Notes under the pieces: model-generated
Databases searched by the model: none
Seen by the model: the letters and a program-made list of their open reading frames with translations, nothing else
What the model was told of the DNA's origin: nothing
Program-made: the position numbers and the translations under genes
Part shown: positions 147 to 60,016 of the stretch, piece by piece
How the letters are laid out: each line of letters begins with the position of its first letter
Position numbering within the stretch: the stretch's first letter is position 1
NCBI GenBank assembly: GCA_038330145.1
Contig: JBBQNR010000001.1
Coordinates: forward strand, 10,500 to 74,499
Direction of reading: 5' to 3'
DNA: 64,000 nucleotides
Origin: Solirubrobacterales bacterium
GTDB lineage: Bacteria > Actinomycetota > Thermoleophilia > Solirubrobacterales > JBBDJG01

Positions 147-153
147 CGACGTC

Positions 154-645: not shown

Positions 646-673
646 ATCTAGAAATTACGGCCTGGAGGCCTTT

Positions 674-1141: not shown

Positions 1142-1299
1142 TACTTCACCGGCGGTCTCAGCAGCCGGGGGCGCCAGCAGCGCTTGCCGCACTGGGGGCA
1201 CCTGCGGCCGAAGCGCTGGCCGGGCTTGCCGCAGCGCGAGCAGTCGGGTCCGAGCAGGTCTCCCTCGGGCTTGACGATGTGTTGCGGTGCCACCTCCAT
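1138..1299 (-). CDS. Small (53 aa) zinc-ribbon protein candidate
   Basis: MEVAPQHIVKPEGDLLGPDCSRCGKPGQRFGRRCPQCGKRCWRPRLLRPPVKY has CxxC...CxxC spacing and strongly G/C-biased third positions. It fills the otherwise empty 230-bp gap before the ABC operon. Its stop shares the palindrome CTAG with the stop of the convergent gene. Confidence 0.4.
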   Translation of the reverse strand: MEVAPQHIVKPEGDLLGPDCSRCGKPGQRFGRRCPQCGKRCWRPRLLRPPVKY

Positions 1300-1371
1300 A
1301 CCGTAGCCGCGCCCGCGCGCTCGGTGCGGAACGTCCCACAGCGGGCTCGGGACACCCTTTAGGATCTGCCC

Positions 1372-3913: not shown

Positions 3914-3983
3914 CGCACCCAGAGGTTGCCACGGCCGGGAAACGGTCCCCGAACGGCGCCGGGGCGGGTCTAACATTGGCTCG

Positions 3984-4502
3984 ATGCCTCAGCTCGCCGA
4001 CACGCTCAACATCGACAACCTCAACCTGCGCTCCGGCGCGGGCACGCGCTTCGACGCCGAGCTGCGGATCGAGCCGCTGCAGGCGGCAGGGCAGAAATAC
4101 CACGTGGTGGGCTGCAGGGTCGACGCTCGCGTCGACGTCTCTCGCACGAGCTCCGGGTACGCCTTCAAGCTTCGCTTTGAAGCCGAGCTGGAGGGACCGT
4201 GCATGCGCTGCCTGGCCGATGCGCGTCCCCTGATCGAGGTCGAGGCTCGCGAGGTCGAGCAGCCGGGAGAGGCGGAGGACTTCCACAGCCCCTACTTCGA
4301 GGACGGCGTGCTGGAGCTGGCAGGCTGGGCGCGTGACGCGCTGGTCCTGGCGCTGCCACCGCGGCTGCTCTGCCGCGACGACTGCCGCGGCCTCTGCTCG
4401 GTCTGCGGCGTCAGCCTCAACGATGCCGACCCCACCGAGCACAGGCACGAGAGCGATATCGACCCGCGCTGGGCCAAGCTGGGCGAGCTGAAGCTGGAAT
4501 AA
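3984..4502 (+). CDS. yceD: YceD/DUF177 family protein (23S rRNA accumulation protein)
   Basis: C-terminal CRDDCRGLCSVCGVSLN...DPRWAKLGELK matches the DUF177 cysteine motif. It sits in the classic position immediately upstream of rpmF. Confidence 0.85.
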   Translation: MPQLADTLNIDNLNLRSGAGTRFDAELRIEPLQAAGQKYHVVGCRVDARVDVSRTSSGYAFKLRFEAELEGPCMRCLADARPLIEVEAREVEQPGEAEDFHSPYFEDGVLELAGWARDALVLALPPRLLCRDDCRGLCSVCGVSLNDADPTEHRHESDIDPRWAKLGELKLE

Positions 4503-4555
4503 CGCACGGGCCGCGGGAATCAGTGATCTAGCCCTCACCGCTATCCTTCCCGGCC

Positions 4556-4771
4556 ATGGCGGTACCAAAGCAAAAGCAATCCAGCGCCCGGCGGGACAAG
4601 CGGCGCGCGAACCACAAGATCTCGGCACCGACCTACAACCAGTGCCCCCAGTGCCACTCGCCGCGTCTGCCGCACCGTGTGTGTCCGGAATGCGGCTATT
4701 ACGGCAAGCGTCAGGTCGTGACGCCGGCCGCTTCCTCCCCCGAGGGGGAACCGTCGCAACAGTCGCAGTAG
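4556..4771 (+). CDS. rpmF: 50S ribosomal protein L32
   Basis: MAVPKQKQSSARRDKRRANHK...CPQCHSPRLPHRVCPECGYY is the canonical L32 N-terminus plus zinc ribbon. Confidence 0.9.
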   Translation: MAVPKQKQSSARRDKRRANHKISAPTYNQCPQCHSPRLPHRVCPECGYYGKRQVVTPAASSPEGEPSQQSQ

Positions 4772-5844
4772 ACGCGCTCGGCGCCGACCTCGGAGTCGCA
4801 GAGGTTGTGTCGGGGGCGGCCGCCGCCGCTCGCGCCGGTACGCGCTGCGTCGTCTACGGCCCTCTGGCAGAGATGGAGCAGGCTCTCGGCGCAGAGGCCC
4901 CCGGCTCGCTGGAGCTCGTCGACGCCCCGTTTACGATCGCCAACGACGACGAGCCGGCTCGGGCGGCGCGCTCGATGACCGAGGCGTCGGTCGTGCAGGC
5001 CGCCAAGTCGGTCGCCGAAGCCCGCGCCGACGCGCTGGTAAGCGCGGGGTCCACGGGCGCCGCGCTGGCGGCATCTCTTCTGCACGTCAAGCGCATGCCG
5101 GGAGTCTTTCGGCCCGCGATCGCCGTGCCGCTGCCGCTGCCGGGCGGCACCGTGGTCCTGCTCGACGTCGGCGCCAACGTCGAGGTGCGGGCCGAGCACC
5201 TGATCCAGTTCGCCCACATGGGCGCGGCCTTCAGCGAGCGGGTGCTCGGCGTGCCGCGGCCCCGGGTCGGGCTGCTGTCGGTGGGGGAGGAGCCGGGCAA
5301 GGGCACCGCGACGGTCGTGGAAGCGCACCAGCGGCTGGCGCAGGGCGAGCTCGAGTTCGCGGGCAACGTCGAGGGCGACGACGTTCCGCAGGCGGCCGTG
5401 GACGTGGTCGTCACGGACGGCTTCACGGGCAACGTGGCGCTGAAGCTGATGGAGGGGACGTCGCGCTCGCTGACCGGCGCCATCTCGCAGGCCGCCCGCT
5501 CTGGCCCGCTGTCGGCGATCGGGGGGCTGCTGCTGAAGCCGAAGCTGTCCAAGCTGCGCGACCGCATCGACCCAGAGCGCGTGGGCGGCGCCTACCTGCT
5601 GGGGCTGCGGAGACTGGTGGTGATCTGCCACGGCCGCTCCAGCCGGCGCGCGATCCAGAATGCGATCGAGCTGGCCGCGCGCGGCGTCGAGCAGCAGGTG
5701 GTGGACCGCACCGCCGAAGGGCTGTCGCGGTCCGGCGCGCTGAGAGGTTCGAACGAACAACCCTTCGCCGAGGCCTCACCGGATGGGCCGGCGGAGACGC
5801 CATCCGCGTCCGCGACCGCTGATAGCTTGGAAGTTCAGCAATGA
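4690..5844 (+). CDS. plsX: Phosphate acyltransferase PlsX
   Basis: VAVDALGADLG... matches the PlsX 'AVDAMGGD' N-terminus, with FTGNVALK downstream. The only canonical start that keeps this motif is ATG 4690, which lies 82 nt inside rpmF. Confidence 0.85.
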   Translation: MRLLRQASGRDAGRFLPRGGTVATVAVDALGADLGVAEVVSGAAAAARAGTRCVVYGPLAEMEQALGAEAPGSLELVDAPFTIANDDEPARAARSMTEASVVQAAKSVAEARADALVSAGSTGAALAASLLHVKRMPGVFRPAIAVPLPLPGGTVVLLDVGANVEVRAEHLIQFAHMGAAFSERVLGVPRPRVGLLSVGEEPGKGTATVVEAHQRLAQGELEFAGNVEGDDVPQAAVDVVVTDGFTGNVALKLMEGTSRSLTGAISQAARSGPLSAIGGLLLKPKLSKLRDRIDPERVGGAYLLGLRRLVVICHGRSSRRAIQNAIELAARGVEQQVVDRTAEGLSRSGALRGSNEQPFAEASPDGPAETPSASATADSLEVQQ

Positions 5845-6116
5845 ACGACCTGCCGGCCGCCAGTCGAGACGAAGTGTTCGCCCTCGTTCGGGGTCATCTG
5901 TCCCAGGAGCTCGGGATGGACTCCTCCGGCATCGAGGAGGGCACCCGCTTCAAGGAGGATCTCGAGGCGGACTCCCTCGACCTCGTGGAGCTGGTGATGG
6001 AGCTGGAAGATCGCTATGGCATCCGGATCACCGACGAAGAGGCGGAGCGGATAGAGACTGTCGGCCAGGCGATCGATTTCGTCCTCTCACACGCCCCCGC
6101 CAATTCTTCCCCCTGA
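5841..6116 (+). CDS. acpP: Acyl carrier protein
   Basis: The LEADSLDLVELVMELEDRYGIRITDEE phosphopantetheine-attachment motif (DSLD) is present. ATGA overlap with plsX. Confidence 0.9.
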   Translation: MNDLPAASRDEVFALVRGHLSQELGMDSSGIEEGTRFKEDLEADSLDLVELVMELEDRYGIRITDEEAERIETVGQAIDFVLSHAPANSSP

Positions 6117-6739
6117 GCGATCAGCTGAGTCAACTCCGGGCTCTGCTCGACGAGCTGCCCGGCGACCTTTCGAGGCAGGCGTTCTCGCACGCCTCCTGGG
6201 TCGACGACCGCGCGGCTTCCTACGAGCGCCTGGCGTTCCTCGGCGACAGCGTCCTCAACCTGGCGATCTCGACAGCACTGTTTCCGCGCTTCAAGCGCCA
6301 CACGGCCGGGCGCCTGACCAAGATCCGGGCGCAGACGGTCAGCAGGCGCTCCTGCGTGGAGGTGGCTCGGGCGCTGGGCGTTCCCGACCGCATGCGGGCG
6401 ATCGCGCCGTCGGGCCAGCCGCACCTGATCGAGGCGCCGATCGCGTCCGAGAGCGTGCTGGCGGAGACGGTGGAGGCCGCGATCGGCGCCTGCTTCCTCG
6501 AGTTTGGGTTCGAGCGCACGGCGGAGGCGGTCGCCGAGGCCTTCGAGCAGCAGATAGAGGTCGCGATCGACACCATGTTCGACTACAAGAGCGAGCTGCA
6601 GGAGCGGCTTGCGCAACGCGGCGAGCTCGTGACCTACACGGTCATCGACGAGCAGGGCCCGCCGCACGACCGCCGCTTCGAGACGGTCGCCGAGGTGGAG
6701 GGGCGCCGGCTCGGCGCCGGCCTTGGCAAGAGCAAGTAG
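6113..6739 (+). CDS. rnc: Ribonuclease III, ending at an in-frame TAG inside the dsRNA-binding domain
   Basis: ERLAFLGDSVLNL RNase III signature, with the dsRBD beginning at DYKSELQERL. No ATG/GTG/TTG follows acpP, and the first plausible start is CTG 6113, nested in the acpP TGA. The ORF stops at TAG 6737-6739, but the frame continues with ESEQEAAREALEELGGK to TGA 6791-6793. Confidence 0.85.
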   Translation: MSDQLSQLRALLDELPGDLSRQAFSHASWVDDRAASYERLAFLGDSVLNLAISTALFPRFKRHTAGRLTKIRAQTVSRRSCVEVARALGVPDRMRAIAPSGQPHLIEAPIASESVLAETVEAAIGACFLEFGFERTAEAVAEAFEQQIEVAIDTMFDYKSELQERLAQRGELVTYTVIDEQGPPHDRRFETVAEVEGRRLGAGLGKSK

Positions 6740-6838
6740 GAATCCGAGCAGGAGGCGGCCCGCGAAGCGCTCGAGGAGCTCGGAGGAAAGTGACGCCGGC
6801 GTCGAATCAGACGGTGACTTTGGGGGTCGAGCGCTGAC

Positions 6839-9800
6839 ATGTACATGAAGTCGATCATGCTGAAGGGCTTCAAGTCGTTCCCTGATCGCACGCAGCTCAC
6901 GTTCGGCCCCGGCGTGAGCGTGATCGTCGGACCCAACGGCAGCGGCAAGTCGAACATCACCGACGCGGTGCTGTGGGCACTCGGCGAGCAGAGCGCTCTG
7001 GCGGTGCGCGGCCAGACGATGCAGGACGTCATCTTCGCCGGCAGTGACGCCGCGCGCAGCCGCAGTTCGGCCGACGTCGAGATCGTGATCGACAACTCCG
7101 ACGGCCAACTCAACTCCGAGTTCTCCGAGCTGGCGATCACGCGCCACATCGATCGCAGCGGCGAGGGCGTCTACCGGTTGAACGGTGCGCGCTGCCGGCT
7201 CGTCGACGTGATGGAGGTTCTCTCCGACAGCGGTCTCGGCAAGGAGATGCACTCGGTGATCAGCCAGGGGCGCGTCGAGGGGATCATCCACTCGAAGCCC
7301 GTAGATCGCACCGCGCTGATCGAGGAGGCCGCCGGCCTCAGCAAGCACCGCAAGCGCCGCCGCCGCGCCCAGCTGAAGCTCGAGCGCACGCAGGACAACC
7401 TCGACCGTGCGCTGGACGTCGAGCGCGAGGCGCGCTCACGGCTGCGTCCGCTGAAGCGACAGGCCGAGGCGGCAGAGCTGCATGCGCGGCTCGAGCGTCA
7501 GGGCCTTGAATTGCGCGGCCGCCTCACCCAGGAGAGCCTGCGTCTGGTGCGCGAGGAGCTCTCGGCGGCCGAGTCCGCTGCGACCGGGGCACGCCGCCGG
7601 CGCGACGAGCTGGAGGCCGAGCAGAGTGCCGTCGCCCATCGCCGCGAGCAGACCGAGCGCAACCTCGCTCAGCACGGCCACGACCGCGAGCAGCTCTCGT
7701 CGCGGTTGTATGCGGCGCGTTCCGCCGCAGAGCGGATCTCGATCCGGCTCGAGTCCGTGCGCGCCACCGAGGCGACCATCGCCGGCCGGCTGCAGCGAGC
7801 GCGGCGCCTGCTGGATCAGCCGCGAGAGGAAGAGGCCGGTGGCGGAACGCTCGCCGAGCTGGAGGCCGAGCTGGCGCAGCTTGAGATCGAGCGCGACTCG
7901 CGCCTGGCCTCGGAGCTTGCGGACGTGGAGGCCGAGCGCCGCGAGGCCGAGGCTCAGGGTGCCAGGCTTGCGGGAGAAGGCGACGCCCGCGCCGCCGAGC
8001 TCGAGCAGGCCGAGACGGCGGTCGCGCAGGCACGGCAGCGGCTGCGGGAGGCCAGCGACCGTGAACAGGCCGCAGCGCGGGTCCAGGCCGGGCTCGAGGT
8101 GGATCTGGAGCGCCTGATCGCCCGCCAGCGGCTCACCGGCGCCGGCACAGGCCCAGCGCTGGCGGACGCGATCCAGGTCGACGACGGTTATGAGTCGGCC
8201 GTCGCAGCGGCCCTCGGTGGGCGGTTGAGCGCACAGCTCGCAGAGGACCTGCCCGGCGCCGCCAGGACGGTCGCGGGCCGGGGCGACCAGGGTGGGCGCG
8301 CTCTCGTCATGGGGGGCGCCGTACCTCGCAACTCGGGCCGGCCACCGCAGCCGGGCGCGCAACGGCTACTGGATCACCTGCATGCGGACGACGGCATCCG
8401 CGAGCTGCTCGTGCGGTTGCTTGCCGACGCCTGGGTCGTCGAGCGCATCGAAGGCCTGCCGGACGATTTCGAGGGCATCGCGGTCACGCTCGAGGGCACG
8501 GCCTACCACGGGGCTCTGCGTCAGGTGCGGCGCCTGCCGGCCGGCGGCGCCCAGGATGCCCTGGCTGCGCGTAGCCGTCGTGAGGAGGTCGAGGCAGAGC
8601 TTGGCCGCGCCACCGCCGAGCTGGAGCGAGCGCGCTCGGAGAATGAGCAGGCCACCGCACAGCTGGCCTCCGGAGAGCAGCAGCGCGAGCAGCTCGAGGG
8701 CGAGCTGCGGGAGCTGAGAAGGCAGCGCGAGGAGCAGGTCGAGCGTGCCCGGCGAGCGGATTGGCTGATTGAGCAGCGACGCGAGCTCGGCAGCGGCCCC
8801 GCCGACGTGCGCCGCCGCGAGCTGGCCGGGCAGGTCGAGGTCGAGCGCCGCCTGGCCGAGACCCTGGCCCGCGGCCAGGCGGAGCAGGCCGCACGCCGGC
8901 GAAGGGTCGAGGCCGCGGCCGAGCGCGACGAGGCGCTCCTGCCTACGGCAGGGCAGCTGATCCGCGCGCTGGAGCAAGCGCTGGCAGCGACTCGTGGCCG
9001 GCTGTCACAGCTGGAAGAGGAGCTTCAGGCCGACGAGGCCGTCGGACAGCAGCAGGCGGCCGAGCTACGCCGCCTGGCCCAATCCGAATACGAGCTTCAG
9101 GCGCGGCTGCGCGAGGCCTCCGAGGCGCTCACGCAGGAGGAGGTGCGTGTCGCCCAGATCCGCGACCGGGAGTCCACGACGGCTGCTGAGCTGACGGGCA
9201 TCTCGCAGCTTCTCGGCGGTGAGGTCGAGGATCAGGGCCCGCTGGCCGAGGAGGAGCGGATCGAGGTCGAGGCGCGCGTGGAGAGGCTCGAGCGCCGGCG
9301 CGAGCGCATCGGCCCCGTGAATCCGCTGGCCGAGAACGAGTACAAGGAGGCGGTCGAGCACGTCGACGAGCTCGAGGGCCAGCGCAAGGACCTCGAGTCC
9401 GCGCTCTCTGAGCTGCGCGGGCTGATCCGCGAGACTGACCGGCGCATCAGGGAGGCCTTCGAGGAGACGTTCGAGATCGCCGCGCGCAACTTTGAGGAGA
9501 TGGTCCAGCACCTGTTCCCCGGCGGACGGGGCAAGCTGCGCCTCGTGAAGCCGCAACGGCCGCGCGTGGTGCTCGGCGGCGCCGAGGCGCCTGATGACGA
9601 GCCCGTGGCCGAGGAGGGTCTCGGCGCCGCGCCGGAGCCGGGCGCCGGTGAGGCCACGGCCGAGTCCGTCGCGGATATGGCCGACCCCAAGGACGATACG
9701 CCGGGCGTGGAGATCGAGGTCACTCCCGCCGGCAAGTCCACCAAGCGCCTGTCACTGCTTTCGGGCGGCGAGAAGTCGCTGGTCGCGCTCGGCTTCCTGT

Positions 9801-10144
9801 TCGCCGTCTTCCTCGCGCGGCCGTGCCCCTTCTACATCCTGGACGAGGTCGAGGCCGCGCTCGACGATCGCAACATCGATCGCTTCCTGGACCTGGTGCG
9901 CCGCTACTCGGAGCGCTCGCAGTTCATCGTCATCACCCACCAGCGCCGCACGATGGAGGCCGCCGACGTCCTCTACGGCGTCAGCATGGGCAGCGACGGC
10001 ATCTCGAAGGTCGTCTCGCGCCGCCTCGGCGACGCCGGGCCTGGTGAGAGCGAGCAGCAGAGCGACGATTCCCAGCAGCCGAGCGACGATTCCCCACAGG
10101 AACAGCCCGGCGAGTCGCAGGAGCGGCTGACCGAGGCGGCATGA
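6839..10144 (+). CDS. smc: Chromosome partition protein SMC
   Basis: N-terminal GPNGSGKSNITDA Walker A, long coiled coils, a hinge, and C-terminal LSGGEKSL...FYILDEVEAALD. Confidence 0.95.
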   Translation: MYMKSIMLKGFKSFPDRTQLTFGPGVSVIVGPNGSGKSNITDAVLWALGEQSALAVRGQTMQDVIFAGSDAARSRSSADVEIVIDNSDGQLNSEFSELAITRHIDRSGEGVYRLNGARCRLVDVMEVLSDSGLGKEMHSVISQGRVEGIIHSKPVDRTALIEEAAGLSKHRKRRRRAQLKLERTQDNLDRALDVEREARSRLRPLKRQAEAAELHARLERQGLELRGRLTQESLRLVREELSAAESAATGARRRRDELEAEQSAVAHRREQTERNLAQHGHDREQLSSRLYAARSAAERISIRLESVRATEATIAGRLQRARRLLDQPREEEAGGGTLAELEAELAQLEIERDSRLASELADVEAERREAEAQGARLAGEGDARAAELEQAETAVAQARQRLREASDREQAAARVQAGLEVDLERLIARQRLTGAGTGPALADAIQVDDGYESAVAAALGGRLSAQLAEDLPGAARTVAGRGDQGGRALVMGGAVPRNSGRPPQPGAQRLLDHLHADDGIRELLVRLLADAWVVERIEGLPDDFEGIAVTLEGTAYHGALRQVRRLPAGGAQDALAARSRREEVEAELGRATAELERARSENEQATAQLASGEQQREQLEGELRELRRQREEQVERARRADWLIEQRRELGSGPADVRRRELAGQVEVERRLAETLARGQAEQAARRRRVEAAAERDEALLPTAGQLIRALEQALAATRGRLSQLEEELQADEAVGQQQAAELRRLAQSEYELQARLREASEALTQEEVRVAQIRDRESTTAAELTGISQLLGGEVEDQGPLAEEERIEVEARVERLERRRERIGPVNPLAENEYKEAVEHVDELEGQRKDLESALSELRGLIRETDRRIREAFEETFEIAARNFEEMVQHLFPGGRGKLRLVKPQRPRVVLGGAEAPDDEPVAEEGLGAAPEPGAGEATAESVADMADPKDDTPGVEIEVTPAGKSTKRLSLLSGGEKSLVALGFLFAVFLARPCPFYILDEVEAALDDRNIDRFLDLVRRYSERSQFIVITHQRRTMEAADVLYGVSMGSDGISKVVSRRLGDAGPGESEQQSDDSQQPSDDSPQEQPGESQERLTEAA

Positions 10145-10785
10145 CCTCGGGCGCGGGCGGCGCCATTGTCGCCCACGGCCCCAGCGCATCTGCGCGCTTC
10201 TCGCTCAGCTTCGACGACGGCCCCAGCCCCTGCACCGAGCGGCTGCTCGATCTGCTGGCCGGCAGCGCAGTGAAGGCAACCTTCTTCATGGTCGGCAGCC
10301 AGCTTCTGCGCGAGCCGGAGATCGGCGCGCTGGTGCGCGACGCCGGTCACGAGATCGGCGTGCACTCGATGGAGCACCTCGACCACGCGGAGGTCGGCCG
10401 CGAGGCCTCTGTCGCCGACGTCGTCGAAGGCGCGGCGACGATCGAGCAGACGCTGGGCGTGGCTCCACGCCTGTTCCGCGCCCCCTACGGGCACTTCGTT
10501 CCCGGCACGCTGGCCGAGGCCGAGGCCGAGCGGGGCGGCTGGACCTGCGTCCACTGGAGCGCCTGGGGCGAGGACTGGAGGGAGGGTGAGACGCGCGAGT
10601 CGATCGCCGCCCGCGTGATCGCGGACCTGCGGCCCGGCGCGATCGTGCTGTTGCACGACGGCAGGCGCGAGCAGGCGATCGAATGCGACCACGTGCTGGG
10701 CGCGGTTGAGGACGTGCTGGCGGAGGCGGGGCGGCGCGGACTGGAGCCGGTCACGGTCGGCGAGTTGCTCGGCCTCGGAAGGTAG
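10141..10785 (+). CDS. Polysaccharide deacetylase (NodB homology domain)
   Basis: FSLSFDDGPSP...ATFFMVG...HSMEH motifs are present. ATGA overlap with the smc stop. Confidence 0.8.
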   Translation: MTSGAGGAIVAHGPSASARFSLSFDDGPSPCTERLLDLLAGSAVKATFFMVGSQLLREPEIGALVRDAGHEIGVHSMEHLDHAEVGREASVADVVEGAATIEQTLGVAPRLFRAPYGHFVPGTLAEAEAERGGWTCVHWSAWGEDWREGETRESIAARVIADLRPGAIVLLHDGRREQAIECDHVLGAVEDVLAEAGRRGLEPVTVGELLGLGR

Positions 10786-10815
10786 ACGCTTCGGCCGCGC
10801 CTAGAATCCGCCGCC

Positions 10816-11805
10816 ATGGCCAAGAGCTGGCAGGAGGTCTTCGACACCGGTAACGGGGCTGCGCCCGAGGTTGCTGCGGACGAGCCCGAGAAACAGAGTG
10901 GCTTCTTTCGCCGCCTGCGCGAGAACCTCGCGCGCAGCAGGGAGGCGCTGACCGTTGAGCTGCGCGCCAGCTTCGTCGGCACGCTCGACGACGAGACCTG
11001 GGAGCGGCTGGAGGAGGCGCTGATCTACGCCGACGTCGGCGCGCGCACTACGGCGAAGGTGGTCGAGCGGCTGGAGCAGGAGGCCGAGGAGGGTGGAATC
11101 GAGAGCGGGGAGGACCTCTCGCGCCGACTGGCCGAGACCCTCGCTCAGCTCGCCCGCGTCGGCGACGACCGAATCGACGTCTCGCACTCGCCGTCGGTGA
11201 TCCTGGCCGTGGGCGTGAACGGGACCGGCAAGACGACCACGATCGGCAAGATCGCCTGGCATCTCCAGAAGGAGATGGGCCGCTCCGTGATCATGGCCGC
11301 TGGCGACACCTACCGGGCGGCGGCCCAGGAGCAGCTCGCCGAGTGGGCGGATCGCGCCGGTTGCGAGATCGTCAGCGCGGCGCCGGGATCGGACCCGGGC
11401 GCGGTCGTTTTTGACGCCATCGAGGCCGCACGAGCACGCGGGCACGACGTCGTGATCGCCGACACGGCCGGCCGGCTGCACACGCAGGTGCCGCTGATGG
11501 AGGAGCTGTCGAAGGTGCGGCGCGTGATCGAGAAGCAGATCGAGGGAGCGCCGCACGAGACGCTCCTGGTCGTCGACGCCACCACGGGCCAGAACGGGCT
11601 GCGCCAGGCAAAGCTGTTCCAGGAGGCAGTCGAGGTCAGCGGCATCGTGCTGACGAAGCTCGATGGCACCGCAAAGGGCGGCATCGCGCTGGCGATCGCA
11701 GAGGAGCTTGGCCTGCCGGTGAAGCTGATCGGCATCGGCGAGCAGCTCGAGGACCTGCGCCCGTTCGACCCGGACGACTTCGCAAGCGCGCTACTGGAGC
11801 CGTAA
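10816..11805 (+). CDS. ftsY: Signal recognition particle receptor FtsY
   Basis: GVNGTGKTTTIGK, DTAGR and TKLDGTAKGG SRP-GTPase motifs. Confidence 0.95.
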   Translation: MAKSWQEVFDTGNGAAPEVAADEPEKQSGFFRRLRENLARSREALTVELRASFVGTLDDETWERLEEALIYADVGARTTAKVVERLEQEAEEGGIESGEDLSRRLAETLAQLARVGDDRIDVSHSPSVILAVGVNGTGKTTTIGKIAWHLQKEMGRSVIMAAGDTYRAAAQEQLAEWADRAGCEIVSAAPGSDPGAVVFDAIEAARARGHDVVIADTAGRLHTQVPLMEELSKVRRVIEKQIEGAPHETLLVVDATTGQNGLRQAKLFQEAVEVSGIVLTKLDGTAKGGIALAIAEELGLPVKLIGIGEQLEDLRPFDPDDFASALLEP

Positions 11806-11842
11806 GCGCTTCGGTACCCGGAACCTTCGGTACAGGAAAGCG

Positions 11843-11869
11843 ACCGGCCCCGAGAATGTCGGGGCCGGT
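11843..11869. terminator. Hairpin between convergent ftsY and the sulfite reductase gene
   Basis: accggccccga-gaatg-tcggggccggt forms an 11-bp perfect stem. There is no clear U tract. Confidence 0.5.
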
Positions 11870-11925
11870 ACGCGGGAGGCGGTGGAATACGGCATGTTCA
11901 AAGTGCGCGAGCGAGGGAAGGAGAC

Positions 11926-13761
11926 TCAGACCGCGCACTCACCTTCGCCGCGCTCCACCCGGTAAGCGTCCTTACGTTCCCAGTCGATGAACTGGTTCAT
12001 GTTCTCGACGCTGAACTCCACCGGCAGCGTGAGGTCCTTGACCACGCCGACGAACTCGTCGTCGCCGACGCGCTCCACGAAGTCGTTGAATGGCTCGCCG
12101 TCGTTGCGCTTCTCCTGGTAGAGCCGCACCCAGCGCTCAATCGCGTCGGGAACGCGCTTGGCCGGAAAGCGGACCTTGAGGCGCTTGGCCATCTTCACCT
12201 CGCCGCCCTCGTACTGGCCGCCGAGGTGGGCGATGTAAGCGGGCAGGTGGCGGTCGCCGACCTTGATCGAGGCGCCGTAGAAGCCGATGTTCGCGATGTG
12301 GTGCTGACTGCACCCGTTCGGGCAGCCGCTCATCTTGACGTGGATCTGCTTCGTCAGCGGGTCATCGATCTGCATCTGTTCGAGGCGCTCGCGCACGACG
12401 GTGTTGAGGCCCATCGAGCTGGTGATGCCGAGCTTGCAGCTATCGGTGCCCGGGCAGCTCACGACGTCGGTGATTTCATGCGCGCCTGCTTCGGCGAGGC
12501 CGATCTCCTTCAGGCGCAGCCAGACGTCGTAGAGGCTCTCGTTGCGGATCCAGCGCAGGACCAGGTTCTGCTGCACGCTGGTGCGGGCGTGGCCGCCGGT
12601 GAAGTCGCGCATGATCTGCGCCAGGCTGCGGAACTGATCCGGTGAGAGGTCGCCTCGGATGACACGCACCTCGGCGGTGGAGAAGCCCTGCTGCCGTTGC
12701 GGCTCCACGTTCGATGCGACCCAGCGCTCGAAGTCGCTTGCATCGCCGTTGGGGCTCGCGAAGCTCGACGGCACGGGGGGAGCGAGCGCCTCCTCGTCGT
12801 AATCGAACAGCAGCGGCTCGGGGTCGAAGTCACGCTCGTTGACCCAGTCGCCCTTCAGCTCCTCGTCCACCTGCTTGCGGAACTCGTCGATCCCGATGCG
12901 GTCGATCAGGAACTTGATGCGGGCGCGGGCACGGTTGGCGCGCAGCTCCTCCTGGCGGTTGAAGATGCGCAGCATCGCCTCGGTGACCTTGAGGTAGTCG
13001 CTCAGCGGCACGAAGTCGTAGAGGACGTGGGCAATGCGCGGCATGATCGAAGTGCCGCCGCCGGTGCGCATCTCGAAGCCCTGCACGAGCTGTCCGTCGA
13101 CCTCGCGCTCGCGCGGCAGCAGGCCGAGGTCGTGGATGCCCGTGATGGCGCGGTCCTCGTCGGTGGCCGTGAACGCCACCTTGAACTTGCGTGGCATCAG
13201 CTGGCAGACGTCGTTGCGCACGAAATAGCGCACGAACGCGCCCACATAGGGAGTGGGGTCGAAGATCTCGCCCTCGCCGACGCCCGCCCACGGGTCGCCA
13301 CTCACGTTGCGCACCGTGTTGCCGCAGGCCTCGCGGCTGGAGAGGCCGGCCTTGGACATGAGGCGGATCGCCTTGGCGGCCTCGGGTAGTGGGATGTGGT
13401 GGAACTGGATGTTCTGGCGCGTCGTGATGTGGCCCTTGACGAGCGGCGTGAAGCGCTCCGCGATCTCCGCGAAGGCGTCCATCTGGTCGGGAGTGACGCC
13501 GCCGAAGGGAAGCTTGACCCGGATCATCTGCACGTCGGGCTGGCGCTGGCCGTAGACGCCCTGCTTGAGGCGGAAGCCGATGAACTCGCCCTCCTCGATG
13601 TCGCGCTTGATGAAGCTGTCGACGTTGGTGTCGAAGTCGTCGAACTCGCGCTCGATGATGGGGATTACTTGACCAGGGACGTTCTCGTAAACCTCGGGGT
13701 TGGTACGAGAGCCGACCCGGCCATTCGTCTTCGTCTGCGGTGGTGCCTGGACTGGCTCCAT
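11926..13761 (-). CDS. Ferredoxin-dependent sulfite/nitrite reductase (NirA/Sir family)
   Basis: Duplicated nitrite/sulfite reductase ferredoxin-like halves. Siroheme/4Fe-4S cysteine cluster CPGTDSCKLG...SGCPNGCSQHH. AGGAGG lies 7 nt upstream of the ATG. Confidence 0.9.
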   Translation of the reverse strand: MEPVQAPPQTKTNGRVGSRTNPEVYENVPGQVIPIIEREFDDFDTNVDSFIKRDIEEGEFIGFRLKQGVYGQRQPDVQMIRVKLPFGGVTPDQMDAFAEIAERFTPLVKGHITTRQNIQFHHIPLPEAAKAIRLMSKAGLSSREACGNTVRNVSGDPWAGVGEGEIFDPTPYVGAFVRYFVRNDVCQLMPRKFKVAFTATDEDRAITGIHDLGLLPREREVDGQLVQGFEMRTGGGTSIMPRIAHVLYDFVPLSDYLKVTEAMLRIFNRQEELRANRARARIKFLIDRIGIDEFRKQVDEELKGDWVNERDFDPEPLLFDYDEEALAPPVPSSFASPNGDASDFERWVASNVEPQRQQGFSTAEVRVIRGDLSPDQFRSLAQIMRDFTGGHARTSVQQNLVLRWIRNESLYDVWLRLKEIGLAEAGAHEITDVVSCPGTDSCKLGITSSMGLNTVVRERLEQMQIDDPLTKQIHVKMSGCPNGCSQHHIANIGFYGASIKVGDRHLPAYIAHLGGQYEGGEVKMAKRLKVRFPAKRVPDAIERWVRLYQEKRNDGEPFNDFVERVGDDEFVGVVKDLTLPVEFSVENMNQFIDWERKDAYRVERGEGECAV

Positions 13762-43883: not shown

Positions 43884-43957
43884 AGCGGATGATGGGACTC
43901 GAACCCACGACCTTCTGCATGGCAAGCAGACGCTCTAGCCAACTGAGCTACATCCGC
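43884..43957 (-). tRNA. tRNA-Gly (anticodon GCC)
   Basis: The reverse complement GCGGATGTAGCTCAGTTGGCTAGAGCGTCTGCTTGCCATGCAGAAGGTCGTGGGTTCGAGTCCCATCATCCGCT folds as a cloverleaf. Anticodon loop TTGCCAT, U73 discriminator, and no encoded CCA. Confidence 0.9.
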
Positions 43958-44095: not shown

Positions 44096-44167
44096 GGCGA
44101 CGTGGCGGAGTGGCTTACGCGGGGGCCTGCAAAGCCCTTTACACCGGTTCGATTCCGGTCGTCGCCT
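44096..44167 (+). tRNA. tRNA-Cys (anticodon GCA)
   Basis: GGCGACGTGGCGGAGTGGCTTACGCGGGGGCCTGCAAAGCCCTTTACACCGGTTCGATTCCGGTCGTCGCCT has acceptor GGCGACG/CGTCGCC, anticodon loop CTGCAAA and U73. Confidence 0.9.
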
Positions 44168-47501: not shown

Positions 47502-47574
47502 CGGGCGCATAGCTCAGTTGGGAGAGCGCCAGCTCGACAAGCTGGAGGTCACTGGTTCGAGCCCAGTTGCGCCC
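47502..47574 (+). tRNA. tRNA-Val (anticodon GAC), with C at position 33
   Basis: GGGCGCATAGCTCAGTTGGGAGAGCGCCAGCTCGACAAGCTGGAGGTCACTGGTTCGAGCCCAGTTGCGCCCA has all four stems perfect. The anticodon loop is TCGACAA. Confidence 0.85.
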
Positions 47575-47691
47575 ACCTTCGCCCAGTCGGCCCGGGCGCG
47601 CTACAGCGGCGCCGAGCGGCGACCGATAGAGGCTCTGTTGAGCGGTGCCGCGACGACTCATGCTGAGCCGGGCAGGGCCGAGGAACAGCGC

Positions 47692-54554: not shown

Positions 54555-56039
54555 ATGGCTTCGAGCCGCAGCCTAGGCACCCGCACGCTCCGGGGCATGT
54601 TCTGGGCCTACGGGTCCTACGTCGGCGGACGCCTGCTGACGCTGCTGGCGACGGCGATCCTGGCGCGACTGCTGACGCCACGCGAGTTCGGCCTCGTCGC
54701 GCTGGCGATCCTGTTCATGTTCCTGCTCGAGACGCTGGCCGACCTGGGCGTCTCGCAGGCGCTGGTGATCGTGAAGGAGGAGGATGAGCTCGAGCACGCC
54801 GAGACGGTGTTCGTGTGGAGCATCGCCCTGGGAGCGGCGTTCTCGATCATCACCGCGGCGGCGAGCCCGTTGGCGGCTTCCTTCTTCGACCAGCCGGGCC
54901 TGACCGCGCTGCTTGCGGTGCTGGGACTGCGGTTCTTCATCCGTTCGATCGGGGCCACCCACTTCACGCTGGCCCAGAAGCGAATCGACTTCCGCCCACG
55001 TACCGCCGCGCAGCTGTCGGACGTGACCCTGCGCGGCCTGACCGCGATCGGCTTCGCGATCGCGGGCTTCGGGGCCTGGAGCCTGGTGCTCGGCTACATC
55101 GTGGGCAGCGTCGCGTCGACGGTGGTGCTCTGGGTGATGGTGAAGTGGCGCCCGCGCCTGAAGCCACAACGAGCTCACCTGCCCCAGCTGCTGCGCTTCG
55201 GCGGAACGCTGACCGGCCTCAACCTGTTGACCGCGATGGAGACGAATCTCGACTTCATCTTCATCGGTCGCTTTCTGACCGCCAGCGACCTGGGCCTCTA
55301 CTCGCTCGGGTTCCGGCTGCCGGAGCTTCTGATCCTCAACCTCTCGGTGGTCGCCGGCCAGGTGCTTTTCCCGGCCTTCGCATCGATCGAGCGCGAGGAC
55401 CTGAGCAGGGCGTTCAGGGTTTCGCTGCGTTACACGCTGATGATCGCGCTGCCGATGGCCGCCGGGCTTGCTGTGCTCGCGCACCCGTTCATCCTTGCCC
55501 TGTTCGGCGACCAGTGGGAGGGCTCCGTTCCCGCGATGCGGGTATTGACGCTCTACGCGCTGGCAGTCGCGATCTCGATTCCCGGGGGCACCATCTTCAA
55601 GGCGATGGGCCGTGCCGGCATCCTGCTCGTCATCGGCATGCCCGAGGCGATCCTGCTGTTCGCCGCGATCTGGACCTTCGTGGACCACGGCATCGTTGCG
55701 GTCGCGGCCTGCATGGCCGGCGTGATGGGGGCGGTGGCGCTGATAAACACGGGGCTGGCCATGGGGAAGCTGGGCGTCGGGCCGAGCGCGGTCTGGAGGC
55801 TGCTCTGGCCACCGCTGCTGGCGACGGCGGGCATGGCGGCGGTGCTGTTTCCGATCGAACGCGCGATCGACTCGCCCTGGCCGGCCCTCCTGATCGGCGG
55901 CGTCGCGGGCGGCCTGACCTATCTCGGGCTGCTGTGGCTGTTCGCTCGCGACGCGCTGATCAGGCTGCGCGACATCGCGCGCGGGCAGAACGGCGGACGT
56001 GGAGACGAAGGCACGCCGGGCACCGACGCGGTGGCCTGA
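54555..56039 (+). CDS. Polysaccharide flippase (Wzx / MOP superfamily)
   Basis: About 12-14 TM segments and an N-terminal RGMFWAYGSYVGGRLLTLLATAILARLL pattern typical of Wzx-like exporters. Confidence 0.85.
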   Translation: MASSRSLGTRTLRGMFWAYGSYVGGRLLTLLATAILARLLTPREFGLVALAILFMFLLETLADLGVSQALVIVKEEDELEHAETVFVWSIALGAAFSIITAAASPLAASFFDQPGLTALLAVLGLRFFIRSIGATHFTLAQKRIDFRPRTAAQLSDVTLRGLTAIGFAIAGFGAWSLVLGYIVGSVASTVVLWVMVKWRPRLKPQRAHLPQLLRFGGTLTGLNLLTAMETNLDFIFIGRFLTASDLGLYSLGFRLPELLILNLSVVAGQVLFPAFASIEREDLSRAFRVSLRYTLMIALPMAAGLAVLAHPFILALFGDQWEGSVPAMRVLTLYALAVAISIPGGTIFKAMGRAGILLVIGMPEAILLFAAIWTFVDHGIVAVAACMAGVMGAVALINTGLAMGKLGVGPSAVWRLLWPPLLATAGMAAVLFPIERAIDSPWPALLIGGVAGGLTYLGLLWLFARDALIRLRDIARGQNGGRGDEGTPGTDAVA

Positions 56040-56209
56040 TTCTTCGCCGCGTGGCGGGTCCGCAGGCGGGTGAGGCGATTTCAGTAGACAAGCGTTGGAC
56101 GCGCTACGCAGCCGGTCTCGGCGGTGAATTGGACGTCCGTTGGACGGTGGCAAAGATCACCCTTGAGTGGGCGCATGGGGAGTCGATGTAATTCACGGAT
56201 CGCAAATAG

Positions 56210-56310
56210 CTGCCTCCCGATAAAGGCAAACCCGTCGTAAGGCGGGGACGCAAAGCCAACGGGGCCCCCGCGAAGCATTTGCCAAGGGGTCGGCCGGGTT
56301 GCCGAAGGAA
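56210..56310 (+). promoter_or_regulatory. c-di-GMP-I (GEMM-I) riboswitch candidate
   Basis: aaaGGCAAACC-cgtc-GUAA-ggcg-GGGACGCAAAGCCaacgggg...GCCGGGUUGCCGAAGG parallels V. cholerae Vc2 GGGCAAACC-cauuc-GAAA-gagug-GGACGCAAAGCCuccgg...GCGGGGUUACCGAUGG. The GNRA-capped first hairpin is included. It lies 40 nt upstream of ATG 56350. Confidence 0.7.
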
Positions 56311-56349
56311 AAAGGCGCGGGTGGTAGCGGACCCAAGGAAGGGGAACCT

Positions 56350-57879
56350 ATGCACCACACCCACCGTGAGCACACGCTCACGAGGAGCGCCTTTGGCGGG
56401 CTTGCCGCCCTGGCCGGCATCGCGGTGCTCCTCGTCGCCCTGGCCGCATCTCTGTCGATGCCGGCAGTGGCCGGAGCGAAGGACCGCTCCTTCACCGCAG
56501 TCAAGGTGAAGCACGGAGTGGCGACTTTCAGGTTGAAGCACGTATCGCCGCGGCAGATCCGCTCGGCGCACGTCCTCGGGCCCAAGGGCACGAAGCGGCT
56601 GTCGCTGAAGCGCATCCGTCGCGCTGCCCGGCGCGGCTACCTGCGCACCAGGATCTCGCGTCACGGCAAGCACAGGCTGCACGTGAGGTCCAAGCGGGCC
56701 CGTCGCTCTGCTTGGTCGAGGCGACGTTCCAAGAAGACCGACCCGACACCGCCGCCGACGACCACACCGCCACCGACCAACACGCCACCACCGACGAACA
56801 CACCACCGCCGACCAACACGCCACCACCGACGACCACACCACCGACCGACCCGATTCTGGTGATCGAGACGCCCGATCCTCCGACTCCCCCGGAGACCGG
56901 TGCCTGCACGACTGACCTGAATCAGTTCGCTCCCGGCCAATCGCCGGCGGCATGCTGGCGGGCGTACGCGGACACGAGCCCGTTCAACCGGCTGATACCG
57001 GCCGGCGCGCGTCTCACGTCCGATTCGTCGTCGCTTGTCGCGAATCTGCGTTCGGAGGGAAGCGGGCCCAAGAGCGGCAGGGCCAACATCCCCGAGGGCG
57101 ACGACTACCACAAGAACATCTACTGGGCCCGCAGCACGGACCCGGAGTACACCGTCATCGGTGGCTCGACGACCGCACCCTACGACGTCGACGGCCGCAA
57201 GGTGCGCATGCCCGACGGAGCACGCCAGACTGCTGGCGGCGACGCCCATCTGGGCATCGTCTACAACGGCGAGGAGTGGTGCTTTTACCAGGCGTCGGTC
57301 AACCCGACGGCAAGGACGATCACCGTCAACTCCGGGCGACGGATCTCGCTCGCGGGCGACGGCCGCAACGCAGCCGCAACCTCGGCACGCTTCGGCTGTC
57401 TCGCGGGCCGCATCCGCTACCCGGAGTTCGCGGCCGGGCAGATCAACCACGCGATCTTCATGAGCGCGTCGACGACCGGCTCGGGCTTCGTCTACCCGGC
57501 ACTGAAGTCGGACGGCCCCAAGGGCGCCGGCTATCCACCGATGGGAACGCGCTTCCAGCTCGATCCGTCCTACGCGACGGATGCATGGCTGGCAGGGTTC
57601 CCGGCGTGGAAGCGGGCGATCCTGCGCGCGCTGCGTGACTACGGTGGATACCTCGGTGACACCACCAGCGGCGGCTGGACGGCGATGCCGTTCGAGTCGG
57701 AGGTCGGGTACTACTCGTTCGGCCTACCACGGCCGTTCGCAGCATATGCGAGCTCGCGTGACTCGACCGATGGCGACATCTCCCTGTCGGGAGGCACGTA
57801 CTACTTCAACCTGGCGAGCGGCGTGGACTGGTCCAGGCTGCGGGTCCTGGACCCGTGCGTCGCGCAGGGCACCTGCTAG
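56350..57879 (+). CDS. Secreted protein, paralogue 1: signal peptide, K/R-rich region, Pro-Thr linker, and unknown ~320-aa C-terminal domain
   Basis: ATG 56350 follows AAGGAAGGGG. Signal peptide LAALAGIAVLLVALAASLSMPAVAGA. The C-terminal domain shares CWR.Y.D.SPFN, GGD.H, GDG.N.AAT.ARFG.LAGRIR, INHA, YPPMGTRFQL, RDYGGYLGDTT and DPCV...TC with the genes at 58256 and 63197. Confidence 0.8.
   Translation: MHHTHREHTLTRSAFGGLAALAGIAVLLVALAASLSMPAVAGAKDRSFTAVKVKHGVATFRLKHVSPRQIRSAHVLGPKGTKRLSLKRIRRAARRGYLRTRISRHGKHRLHVRSKRARRSAWSRRRSKKTDPTPPPTTTPPPTNTPPPTNTPPPTNTPPPTTTPPTDPILVIETPDPPTPPETGACTTDLNQFAPGQSPAACWRAYADTSPFNRLIPAGARLTSDSSSLVANLRSEGSGPKSGRANIPEGDDYHKNIYWARSTDPEYTVIGGSTTAPYDVDGRKVRMPDGARQTAGGDAHLGIVYNGEEWCFYQASVNPTARTITVNSGRRISLAGDGRNAAATSARFGCLAGRIRYPEFAAGQINHAIFMSASTTGSGFVYPALKSDGPKGAGYPPMGTRFQLDPSYATDAWLAGFPAWKRAILRALRDYGGYLGDTTSGGWTAMPFESEVGYYSFGLPRPFAAYASSRDSTDGDISLSGGTYYFNLASGVDWSRLRVLDPCVAQGTC
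56746..56850 (+). repeat. Coding tandem repeat, ~5.5 copies of an 18-bp unit encoding (PPPTNT)n
   Basis: ccgccgacgaccacaccg / ccaccgaccaacacgcca / ccaccgacgaacacacca / ccgccgaccaacacgcca / ccaccgacgaccacacca. Confidence 0.85.
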
Positions 57880-57940: not shown

Positions 57941-58255
57941 GCTCATTCCGCCTGTGAGCAAGATCGGCCCACATCACGCAATCCATGGCTACGCTGGGGG
58001 AGAGCAATGTCGCAAAGAGCGACTTTTCGCTCTACACCGGGGGTTTCCGGTTGTGCGTTGGTGCCCCGGGTTGACGTGTTATAGGGTGTTAGCTGTCTAG
58101 CTCTCGTGCCGTACCGCGCCATCAGCGTCCGGCGTAGGTGCGGCGGCGTCGCACTGCGGCAGGCATGAGCGATGCTCCGGCTGGGTATGGGGCAAGGACG
58201 AGTTGGCAAGCAAGCCGGCCCGAAGTTAGGGATGGCGAACGGGAAAACGGGAGGC

Positions 58256-60016
58256 ATGATGCAGGGAAGTTCACGCAGGGTGTTGAAGCCGCTGGTCGCG
58301 CTGTTGGTGCTGGTCTTGGTGGCGCTGGCCGGCGCGCCCGCGATGGCGGTGGAGGAATCGCCGCCCGTGTTGCGCCAGTTCGGCATGGAGACCGGCGACT
58401 TCTCGCGCTTCGATAAGACCGCCGCGACGGCCGGGTCGGTGACCATCGATGGCAACCGAACCTACGGCGGCGAGTACTCCGCCCACGCCCATTACGAGGG
58501 ACTCAACCGCCCCGGCTTCGCGCTGACCGCGTTCGACGTCGAGTGGGCCGGCGGTGACGACGTCTGGTACGGCGCCGGCTTCTACCTGCCCCTCACGTTC
58601 CCGGCGTCACAGCACGCGGACGTGATGCTCGTCGGCTGGGACAACCGCCCGACTTACCAGTCGGGGGCCGACTACAGCGGCGTCGTGATTGCGGCGTCCG
58701 ACCACAAGGCGTATCTGGTCAGAGGCAAGGCCGATGGGAGCCAGCGCGAGGTACTGGCTGGACCCATCGACGTTCCCCTCGGCCGCTGGTTCTTCACCGA
58801 GGTCCACCAGAGGCTCGATGGCGCCAAGGGCGTGAACGAGCTGTTCGTGGACGGCGAGCTGGAGAGCAAGTCCGACAGGCCCAACACTTACGGCCGCGCG
58901 GCCGATCAGGTGCGCTACGGGATGCTCGGCCTTCAGCAGCTGACACCGCTCGACCTCTGGTTCGACCGCGCCGTCGCGCGCAAAAGCGGCAGCGACCGCA
59001 CCTGCAACTGGGGGGTCACCGCCTCGCCCTGGATGACCGAGTCCGGCAGCTACATCGCCGCCGCCAAGCACGAGGGCGGCTACCCGGTCGGATGCTGGCG
59101 CCCGTACTCCGACGCCAGTCCCTTCAATCAGCGCATCCCCGAGGACGCCCGGGTCGACTCGGGCTCAGCCCAGATGGTGAAGCGGCTCACCGACGCCGGC
59201 ATGCCCACCGATCGTCGCGCCGGCATCGCCGATACCTCGGAGGACTTCTACAAGCCGACCTACTGGGCCCGCCCCACCGATCCGTTGGTACGCCTCAACG
59301 CGACCGGCAGCTCCCCGCAGATCGACGGCGATCTGATCCGGGTGCCGGTCGGGGCCCGCCCGGCCGGCGGCAGCGACCGTCACATGACGATCGTGCAACC
59401 GGACGGCTGGGAGTACGACCTCTGGCACGCGGAGCCGGTCTCCGGCGGAGTGCTGAGCTACAACGCCGGCCGCAAGATCCCCATCGTCGGCGACGGCCTC
59501 AACTCGGCCGCGACGGCCTCGCGCTTCGGCAACCTCGCCGGGCGGATCAGAGCGCAGGAGATGGAGGTGGGCCAGATCAACCACGCCTTCTTCATGGCCG
59601 CCTCGACGACCGCCACCACGGCCGTCTACCCGGCCGCGAAGAGCGATGGGAACAGGGACCCAGCCGCGGGCTATCCGCCGATGGGGACGCGCTTCCAGCT
59701 CCAGATCAGCGACGCGGAGCTGTCACGCTTCCCCTACTGGAAGCAGGCGGTTCTGCGCGCGTTCCGCGACTACGGCGGGTATCTCGGCGACACCACCGGG
59801 TCGCCCTGGACCTTCGCGGCGCTCGAGTCGGGCTCGTCGTACACGAGCTTCGGCCTCGAGGACCGCATGGTCACGTTCGCCCGCCAGGCGATGCAGCAAG
59901 GCCAGGGCGGAATCGACTACAGCGGTGGCATCTATTACTTCGACATCGCCTCCGGGGTCGACTGGGCGAATCGCCTGCGCGTGATCGACCCCTGCGTGAC
60001 CGAGCGCACCTGTTAG
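58256..60016 (+). CDS. Secreted protein, paralogue 2: signal peptide, ConA-like/polysaccharide-lyase-like N-domain, and the same unknown C-terminal domain
   Basis: ATG 58256 follows GGGAGG. Signal peptide LVALLVLVLVALAGAPAMA. The N-domain pattern is WYGAGFYLP...GRWFFTEVHQRL...NELFVDGEL...VRYGMLGL. The C-domain carries the motifs listed for paralogue 1. Confidence 0.8.
   Translation: MMQGSSRRVLKPLVALLVLVLVALAGAPAMAVEESPPVLRQFGMETGDFSRFDKTAATAGSVTIDGNRTYGGEYSAHAHYEGLNRPGFALTAFDVEWAGGDDVWYGAGFYLPLTFPASQHADVMLVGWDNRPTYQSGADYSGVVIAASDHKAYLVRGKADGSQREVLAGPIDVPLGRWFFTEVHQRLDGAKGVNELFVDGELESKSDRPNTYGRAADQVRYGMLGLQQLTPLDLWFDRAVARKSGSDRTCNWGVTASPWMTESGSYIAAAKHEGGYPVGCWRPYSDASPFNQRIPEDARVDSGSAQMVKRLTDAGMPTDRRAGIADTSEDFYKPTYWARPTDPLVRLNATGSSPQIDGDLIRVPVGARPAGGSDRHMTIVQPDGWEYDLWHAEPVSGGVLSYNAGRKIPIVGDGLNSAATASRFGNLAGRIRAQEMEVGQINHAFFMAASTTATTAVYPAAKSDGNRDPAAGYPPMGTRFQLQISDAELSRFPYWKQAVLRAFRDYGGYLGDTTGSPWTFAALESGSSYTSFGLEDRMVTFARQAMQQGQGGIDYSGGIYYFDIASGVDWANRLRVIDPCVTERTC

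Follow-up and report, generated by a model that had tools for sequence, protein, structure and literature searches.

What does an RNA that resembles a receptor for the second messenger cyclic di-GMP (c-di-GMP) do in front of a single gene for a secreted protein, in the middle of a polysaccharide locus? The question is raised by a stretch of 64,000 nucleotides (nt) from a Solirubrobacterales bacterium (contig JBBQNR010000001.1 of the assembly GCA_038330145.1, positions 10,500 to 74,499), which we call the window and in which all positions are counted from the first letter. An earlier reading of the sequence alone had claimed a GEMM-I-like element (i.e. a c-di-GMP-I riboswitch) at 56210-56310, inside an exopolysaccharide (EPS) locus and upstream of an uncharacterized secreted protein, and both parts of this claim hold: a full-length Rfam match covers 56216-56307 on the forward strand, within the 5' leader of a gene whose product of 509 amino acids (aa) has a signal-peptide-like N-terminus. 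The surrounding genes (a Wzz-like gene, Wzy_C, GT2, GT4 and a flippase gene, with GT1 downstream) confirm a Wzx/Wzy-type polysaccharide, i.e. exopolysaccharide, locus. The flippase gene (Polysacc_synt_3, 54555-56039) is directly upstream of the leader, and the aptamer sits within the 310-nt gap between its stop codon at 56039 and the ATG at 56350, with 42 nt between the 3' end of the aptamer and this ATG, both on the forward strand. Judged from its sequence, the element is practically certain to be a canonical class-I c-di-GMP aptamer of the receptor-less GYRA-tetraloop subtype, placed in the leader of a single gene within the EPS locus. As to its action, we favour, with less confidence, a translational OFF switch that would be operated by two alternative helices, H1 and H2, formed in the leader and at the first codons of the gene.

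The identity of the element was established by comparing the whole window with the 4227 families of Rfam 15, using cmscan and gathering thresholds. The match comprises model positions 1-80 of 80 and reaches 67.5 bits, the gathering cut-off being 59, at an E-value of 8.4e-14 that is computed for 64 kb and 4227 families; the conserved blocks quoted in the sequence-only reading are found in the sequence at 56222-56308. The model alignment lays the aptamer out as three helices, with no non-canonical pair flagged in any of them. P1 is formed by the pairs C56216-G56307, C56218-G56304 and G56219-C56303. P2 starts with two outer pairs (G56226-C56251 and C56227-G56250), which are followed by an AAA/GAC internal loop and by an inner stem of six pairs (56231-36 with 56241-46), capped by GUAA at 56237-56240, the GNRA tetraloop that had already been spotted by eye. 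Two junction bases (56252-53) separate P2 from P3, which spans 56254-56300 and in which 56254-57 pair with 56297-300, 56260-62 with 56294-96 and 56263-65 with 56289-91, around an AA bulge at 56258-59 and a GG bulge at 56292-93. Free-energy folding recovered P2 and P3 as well. P3 had resisted folding by eye, and its failure to form had been named as an argument that would count against the element; it pairs without any non-canonical pairs.

Positions G20, A47 and C92 (in the numbering of the Vibrio cholerae riboswitch Vc2) have been named as ligand-contacting in c-di-GMP-I riboswitches, and we used the spacing of 27 nt between G20 and A47 given in the same source to place A47 at 56252 (PMC11218506). 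All three are present in the window (Table 1), and it is because of this, together with the full-length Rfam match, that we regard the aptamer as canonical. The sequence-only reading had equated G20 with the G right before CAAACC, i.e. with 56226; this base pairs with C56251, and the true equivalent is 56225. Since both bases are G, the reassignment leaves unchanged the accompanying inference that the identities at positions 20 and 92 predict selectivity for c-di-GMP over 3'3'-cyclic GMP-AMP (cGAMP, also written c-AMP-GMP), and G56225 and C56302 are indeed there.

The closest reference is Vc2 itself, which belongs to RF01051 and precedes tfoY (VC1722). The window has in common with it the three-helix layout, the core GGCAAACC ... 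GGGACGCAAAGCC ... GGGUUxCCGA, the ligand-contacting bases and a GNRA loop on P2. It differs in that Vc2 combines a GAAA loop with an 11-nt receptor in P3, whereas the window has GUAA, no receptor, the AA bulge and a 23-nt insertion in P3; it also has G91 where Vc2 has A91, another expression platform and another regulated gene. The missing tetraloop receptor had been proposed as grounds for rejecting the element, an argument that does not apply to this kind of GEMM RNA: those with GYRA tetraloops almost never have the receptor, and additional bulged A's close to the base of the second hairpin are seen in about half of the examples without a receptor (Weinberg 2007, PMC1950547). With its GUAA loop, no receptor-like sequence and AA bulge at 56258-59, the window conforms to this receptor-less alternative, from which it differs in that many of these RNAs use an intrinsic terminator overlapping the second hairpin (PMC1950547), while the window has none and its competing helix targets P1.

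The best-scoring Rfam family for the element is not RF01051 (c-di-GMP-I), however, but RF03167 (c-di-GMP-I-GGC). Within the Rfam clan CL00126 only the best member is reported, and one further member also passed its own cut-off. The GGC variant was reportedly described by Weinberg and colleagues in PNAS in 2017, and we take the three letters of its name to stand for the identities at positions 20, 47 and 92, the middle letter being position 47. Taken at its face value, the label would make the element a GGC variant with altered or unknown ligand specificity, and the top rank of RF03167, above its cut-off, speaks for this; the window and the RF03167 model have in common the P1/P2/P3 layout, the GNRA loop and the short receptor-less P3. 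The two consensus lines, however, differ in their core only in the junction base (GGGACGC-A-AAgCc in RF01051 and GGGACGC-G-AAgCc in RF03167), and at this sole discriminating position the window reads GACGC-A-AAGCC, so that A56252 stands opposite the conserved G of RF03167 and the A-to-G change that defines the variant is absent.

The label also turned out to be common among riboswitches with A47. A pattern scan of a genome collection, in which either A or G was permitted at position 47, gave A in 128 of the 128 matches listed, with the window and the previously fetched orthologous leaders among them. The pattern is not specific to a subfamily but taxonomically broad (Proteobacteria, Chloroflexota, Firmicutes and Actinomycetota). 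When 18 of these A47 loci were scanned with Rfam, 13 of them, which together hold 15 aptamer matches, were labelled RF03167. Among these is a riboswitch of Vibrio maritimus (L069, 368-455; 69.7 bits, a score similar to that of the window), whose sequence (CACGCACAGGGCAAACC...GGGGUUGCCGAUG) we take to be essentially that of Vc2, next to at least 12 other A47 riboswitches. The structure lines show why: P1 and a short P3 are part of the RF03167 model, whereas RF01051 has no pairs in the P1 region and includes the inner receptor hairpin of P3, which favours RF03167 for any RNA that has a good P1 but lacks the receptor hairpin. From these comparisons of sequences and models, the label on the window is best described as cross-talk caused by clan competition, and the score as having no discriminating power. 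We rejected membership in the GGC variant on the base at 56252, and consider it very improbable. The case illustrates in detail how clan competition in Rfam can create an artefact: counts of GGC variants made from cmscan labels alone would be inflated, and automated variant surveys could be misled.

A change of ligand in another direction, to 3'3'-cGAMP, would make the element a GEMM-Ib riboswitch, like those of Geobacter. GEMM-Ib variants that sense c-AMP-GMP carry A at position 20, a rule said to go back to Kellenberger 2015 and Nelson 2015. The Geobacter riboswitches share fold and clan with the window and differ from it by A20 versus G20, and G is found at this position in the window and in all orthologous leaders. 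This leaves GEMM-Ib a very slim chance, even though the GEMM-I fold is common to both and rare GEMM-I variants do sense c-AMP-GMP (PMC7266159).

Conservation of the aptamer with its downstream gene bears on whether the element functions at all. The 509-aa protein has 63 database relatives, almost all of them metagenomic. Four full-length orthologues (P0004, P0005, P0006 and P0007) show 44-48% identity with the window protein; P0002 and P0026 come from closer relatives, with 95% identity across the 55% of the query that is aligned and 85% across 24%, respectively. Orthologue contexts were recovered by exact-protein look-ups, i.e. from outside the listed loci of our metagenome scan, and in every one of them (P0002, P0004-P0007 and P0026) the aptamer lies about 40 nt upstream of the start codon. 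Seven more leader sequences, taken from eight loci (L001, L002/L003/L004, L005, L207, L208 and L212), carry it, and the same flippase gene stands upstream in the window, L002-L004 and L212. The orthologous leaders have the same base as the window at 76-79 of 79-81 aptamer positions, and the few substitutions keep the pairing (C-G to U-G in P3 of L005 and L207, G-U to A-U in L207). Set against the 44-48% identity of the proteins, this means that the RNA is constrained far more strongly than its protein. It is accordingly almost inconceivable that the match is fortuitous or the decaying remnant of an element without function: this would have to coexist with an E-value of 8e-14, with a near-identical aptamer across proteins that have diverged so far, and with an expression platform that is conserved too.

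RNA and gene occur together in one narrow clade only, since homologues beyond it are without the aptamer. It was not found upstream of the distant homologues P0008, P0009 and P0020; a regular expression for the GEMM core gave no match among at least 80 metagenome homologue loci listed, which encode proteins of 32-43% identity; and a tblastn search with two window proteins against 120 genome riboswitch loci gave no matches, none of these loci encoding the regulated protein. Two observations on individual leaders may be added. The 23-nt insertion in the terminal loop of P3 occurs only in the window, L001 and L212, the loop being short in L002, L005, L207 and L208; the three insertions have different sequences, and each could fold into a small hairpin (GCGAA/UUUGC, GCAA/UUGC and GGCGA/UUGCC). 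In L212 (ENA ERZ25039536 contig_95148, 1-13146), which comes from a close relative, the locus is split into many short open reading frames, the flippase being annotated as several fragments and the target gene as two (381 + 125 aa), and the riboswitch is intact; the breaks look like frameshift errors of a long-read assembly, not like pseudogenization.

How, then, does the aptamer act on the gene? An intrinsic terminator was rejected as the expression platform, as none was found on the forward strand between the aptamer and the ATG. Folding of 56200-56365 to minimum free energy (MFE) retained P2 and P3 and replaced P1 by a longer helix, H1, in which GCUGCC (56209-14) pairs with GGUAGC (56323-28) and CCCG (56216-19) with CGGG (56318-21), with a U/U internal loop between them. 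H1 uses the 5' strand of P1, and hence the two helices are mutually exclusive. RNAduplex puts it at -18.9 kcal/mol for the window and at values from -18.1 to -20.4 kcal/mol for the four remaining distinct lineages, and in the window it beats 98.5% of shuffles of its 3' strand (the switching strand X) and 99.7% of random genomic 23-mers, with 0.3-2% of the shuffled or genomic surrogates overall doing as well. The pairs of H1 were tabulated from RNAduplex, since the MAFFT alignment shifts the X strand by two columns between clades. They include one compensatory change, GCUGCC/GGUAGC in the window clade versus GCCGCC/GGUGGC, i.e. U-A versus C-G, and the insertions and deletions are confined to the internal loop (U, UU or UGU).

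Strand X has a second potential partner. Together with the preceding bases (56314-28) it can pair with 56352-65, at the very beginning of the coding region, to form H2, for which RNAduplex gives -16.3 kcal/mol with the window sequence and values from -14.2 to -19.3 kcal/mol with the other six leaders. The opening codons AUG-CAC-(CAC)-ACC (Met-His-Thr) are kept at the nucleotide level in all orthologues, while the rest of the N-terminus diverges, which is consistent with pairing of the first codons to the leader in H2. Ensemble accessibilities computed with the aptamer masked and unmasked, with 45 nt of coding sequence added, gave identical values, and a comparison of forced helices was used instead. 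With H1 forced, 3-6 of the 13 nt from the AUG to +12 are paired in the seven leaders; with P1 forced, X forms H2 and 7-11 of these 13 nt are paired. In the same forced folds of the seven leaders, the H1 state is, without ligand, more stable than the P1 state by 3.7-12.6 kcal/mol. Aptamers of this kind bind c-di-GMP with picomolar to nanomolar affinities, and ligand binding might plausibly pay for this gap.

Table 1. Features of the aptamer, its expression platform and the neighbouring genes, with positions in the window.
Feature	Position	Strand	Basis or remark
Promoter-like block TTGAG ... G(T/C)CGAT(G/C)NAA upstream of the leader	56163-56194	+	Conserved in leader alignments, proteins 44-48% identical
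H1 5' strand, GCUGCC-U-CCCG	56209-56219	+	MFE, RNAduplex; last four bases (56216-19) double as P1 5' strand
c-di-GMP-I (GEMM-I) aptamer	56216-56307	+	Rfam cmscan, full model; kept upstream of orthologues
G, equivalent of Vc2 G20	56225	+	Model alignment; last unpaired junction base before P2
A, equivalent of Vc2 A47	56252	+	Model alignment; consensus lines GACGCGAAgCc (RF03167) versus GACGCAAAgCc (RF01051)
Insertion of 23 nt in the P3 terminal loop	56266-56288	+	Model alignment; can fold as its own small hairpin
C, equivalent of Vc2 C92	56302	+	Model alignment; junction base immediately 5' of P1 3' strand
Switching strand X, CGGG-U-GGUAGC	56318-56328	+	Pairs with 56209-19 (H1) or, within 56314-28, with 56352-65 (H2)
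Shine-Dalgarno region AAGGAAGGGG	56335-56344	+	Invariant in alignment; 5 nt before ATG, flanked by CCC...GGG mini-stem
Regulated gene, 509 aa	56350-57879	+	Signal-peptide-like N-terminus, small beta domain, Pro/Thr-rich linker, C-terminal domain of about 315 aa
H2 target, G of AUG and codons 2-5	56352-56365	+	RNAduplex, forced-helix folding
Neighbour paralogue	58172-60016	+	N-terminal PF14099 polysaccharide lyase domain; C-terminal half 50% identical to the domain of the 509-aa protein

These alternatives suggest the following course of events. Without ligand, 56209-19 would pair with X (56318-28) as H1, by which P1 would be prevented and the Shine-Dalgarno region and the AUG left largely open, with translation on. 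Binding of c-di-GMP would lock the junction and P1, make H1 impossible and release X (56314-28), which could then pair with 56352-65 as H2 and block initiation, with translation off. In this relay, in which P1 would exclude H1 and H1 would exclude H2, high c-di-GMP would repress the secreted, probably glycan-acting protein. The existence of the helices, their conservation and their mutual exclusivity are observed in the folds and alignments; from them we infer the sign of the switch and translation as the controlled step, and we give the resulting translational OFF switch under c-di-GMP a probability of roughly 0.58.

Several points weigh against such an OFF switch. H2 is only marginally above shuffled controls (p 0.05-0.14). 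The unconstrained MFE structure already contains H2 in L002 and L208, or when longer 3' extensions are folded, so that thermodynamics by itself yields no clean two-state switch. The pairing of the Shine-Dalgarno region barely changes between the two states (3-5 of 9 nt), and there are about five independent lineages, and one compensatory event, behind H1. Finally, the biology does not fix the sign, as glycanases encoded in EPS operons can serve production, which would call for an ON switch, as well as dispersal, which would call for an OFF switch.

With the same aptamer and ligand, an ON switch could work through the Shine-Dalgarno region instead: the GGG of freed X (56319-21) would pair with the CCC at 56332-34, and the Shine-Dalgarno GGGG would thereby be released from the CCC/GGG mini-stem, so that high c-di-GMP would activate a protein of EPS maturation. 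The invariant CCC-AAGGAR-GGG mini-stem does overlap the Shine-Dalgarno region in every leader, EPS loci commonly encode glycanases that are needed for synthesis, and the statistical weakness of H2 counts in the same direction. On the other hand, the mini-stem has just 3-4 base pairs and is present in both forced states, and forcing P1 pairs more, not less, of the start-codon region in seven of the seven leaders, which makes an ON switch rather unlikely in our view. We find it still harder to believe that the folds of the same aptamer control Rho-dependent termination or the stability of the mRNA, in the leader or early coding region. This would suit the missing intrinsic terminator; high-GC Actinobacteria often do without canonical terminators, and a study of an actinobacterial flavin mononucleotide (FMN) riboswitch is said to have documented the involvement of Rho or RNase. 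However, no C-rich, G-poor tract resembling a rut site is evident in the leader, which is G-rich, and the switching strand is placed to pair with the AUG region in all lineages. Moreover, a block of translation would expose the mRNA to Rho anyway, so that such an effect could be secondary.

The OFF switch that we favour would have precedents in its logic and would differ from them in its execution. The c-di-GMP-I riboswitch Cd1 of C. difficile is an OFF switch. Cd1, and likewise Bc1 and Bc2 of the Bacillus cereus group, act by transcription termination in low-GC Firmicutes, in contrast to the window, with its genome of 69% GC, no terminator and a predicted masking of the start codon. All three resemble the window in being c-di-GMP-I aptamers that lead genes for surface or secreted factors and motility, and OFF logic is documented for some c-di-GMP-I riboswitches (PMC11218506).

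Transcription of the leader may hold a further input. A promoter-like block, TTGA-N15-G(C/T)CGAT(G/C)NAA, is aligned in the window, L001, L002, L005, L207 and L212, and a search for a sigma-70 consensus upstream of the leader found none. By its spacing and its -10-like GCCGAT, the block resembles promoters of the sigma-28 (FliA/WhiG) type, a role that is speculative; if it is real, the gene would be coupled to a motility or development sigma factor in addition to c-di-GMP.

What the switch would control is a protein in several parts. Its N-terminus is basic, then hydrophobic up to AVAGA-K, and looks like a Sec-type signal peptide. The Pro/Thr-rich linker is disordered, and the C-terminal 315 aa or so are modelled confidently by AlphaFold (predicted local distance difference test, pLDDT, mostly above 90). 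This C-terminal domain has no match in Pfam, NCBIfam or PDB sequences and no significant Foldseek match to solved structures. It is shared with the product of the neighbouring gene, the two copies being encoded at 56932-57879 and 59072-60016, and the lyase-fusion architecture of the neighbour recurs in the database relatives P0012 and P0017. In L002 the gene that comes after the orthologue of the regulated one is convergent with it. This and the weak terminator-like hairpin past the stop codon of the regulated gene (see below) suggest a monocistronic riboswitch transcript, with the lyase-fusion paralogue probably transcribed separately from its own promoter.

Further relatives of the domain are found in phages. 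A Foldseek search of BFVD matched it to a protein of Gordonia phage Guillaume (E 2e-18) and to a phage protein annotated with parallel beta-helix repeats (E 7e-13); matches to PHROG 17388, a 'minor tail protein', have E-values of 2e-11 and 5e-16; tblastn found the domain in 69 Gordonia phage records; and one Microcystis phage protein is homologous as well. Residues D252, D264, D298, H300, E359, H367, D437 and E449 are invariant in the alignment, a set of D, H and E positions that would fit an enzyme. The fusion with a lyase, the homology to phage minor tail proteins and the invariant acidic and histidine residues together point to a putative role of the 509-aa protein in binding or degrading surface glycans. 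A bolder proposal is that the riboswitch marks an unrecognized family of secreted glycan depolymerases, in the host a matrix-remodelling or dispersal enzyme repressed by c-di-GMP; this we put forward only tentatively, as possible but far from probable.

A few observations from the window and from other loci are recorded here in their own right. About 130 nt past the stop codon of the regulated gene there is a weak terminator-like hairpin at 58009-58023 (GTCGC-AAAGA-GCGAC), followed by TTTTCGCTCT up to 58033. The polysaccharide locus is closely preceded by three tRNA genes, at 43884-43957 on the reverse strand and at 44096-44167 and 47503-47575 on the forward strand, which could mark the edge of an acquired island. 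In loci unrelated to the window, L050 has two identical c-di-GMP-I aptamers (1169-1233 and 2028-2092, 859 nt apart), and near-tandem pairs occur in L067 (3249-3332 and 3373-3456) and L039 (2180-2276 and 2379-2472); all three pairs could be tandem riboswitch arrangements.

The RNA element itself adds little: it is a member of a well-known, textbook class, and standard Rfam annotation would also detect it. GEMM RNAs are named after their association with genes for environment, membrane and motility, and a specialist would expect to meet one in an EPS locus, in front of the gene for a secreted factor. What the locus does offer is a compact, terminator-free H1/H2 expression platform, and an uncharacterized family of secreted proteins with a direct tie to c-di-GMP signalling, in a high-GC lineage that has received little study, which gives a handle on the function of these proteins. 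If they do prove to be glycan depolymerases repressed by c-di-GMP, their C-terminal domain would link the tail depolymerases of phages with the turnover of bacterial biofilms under direct control of a second-messenger RNA.

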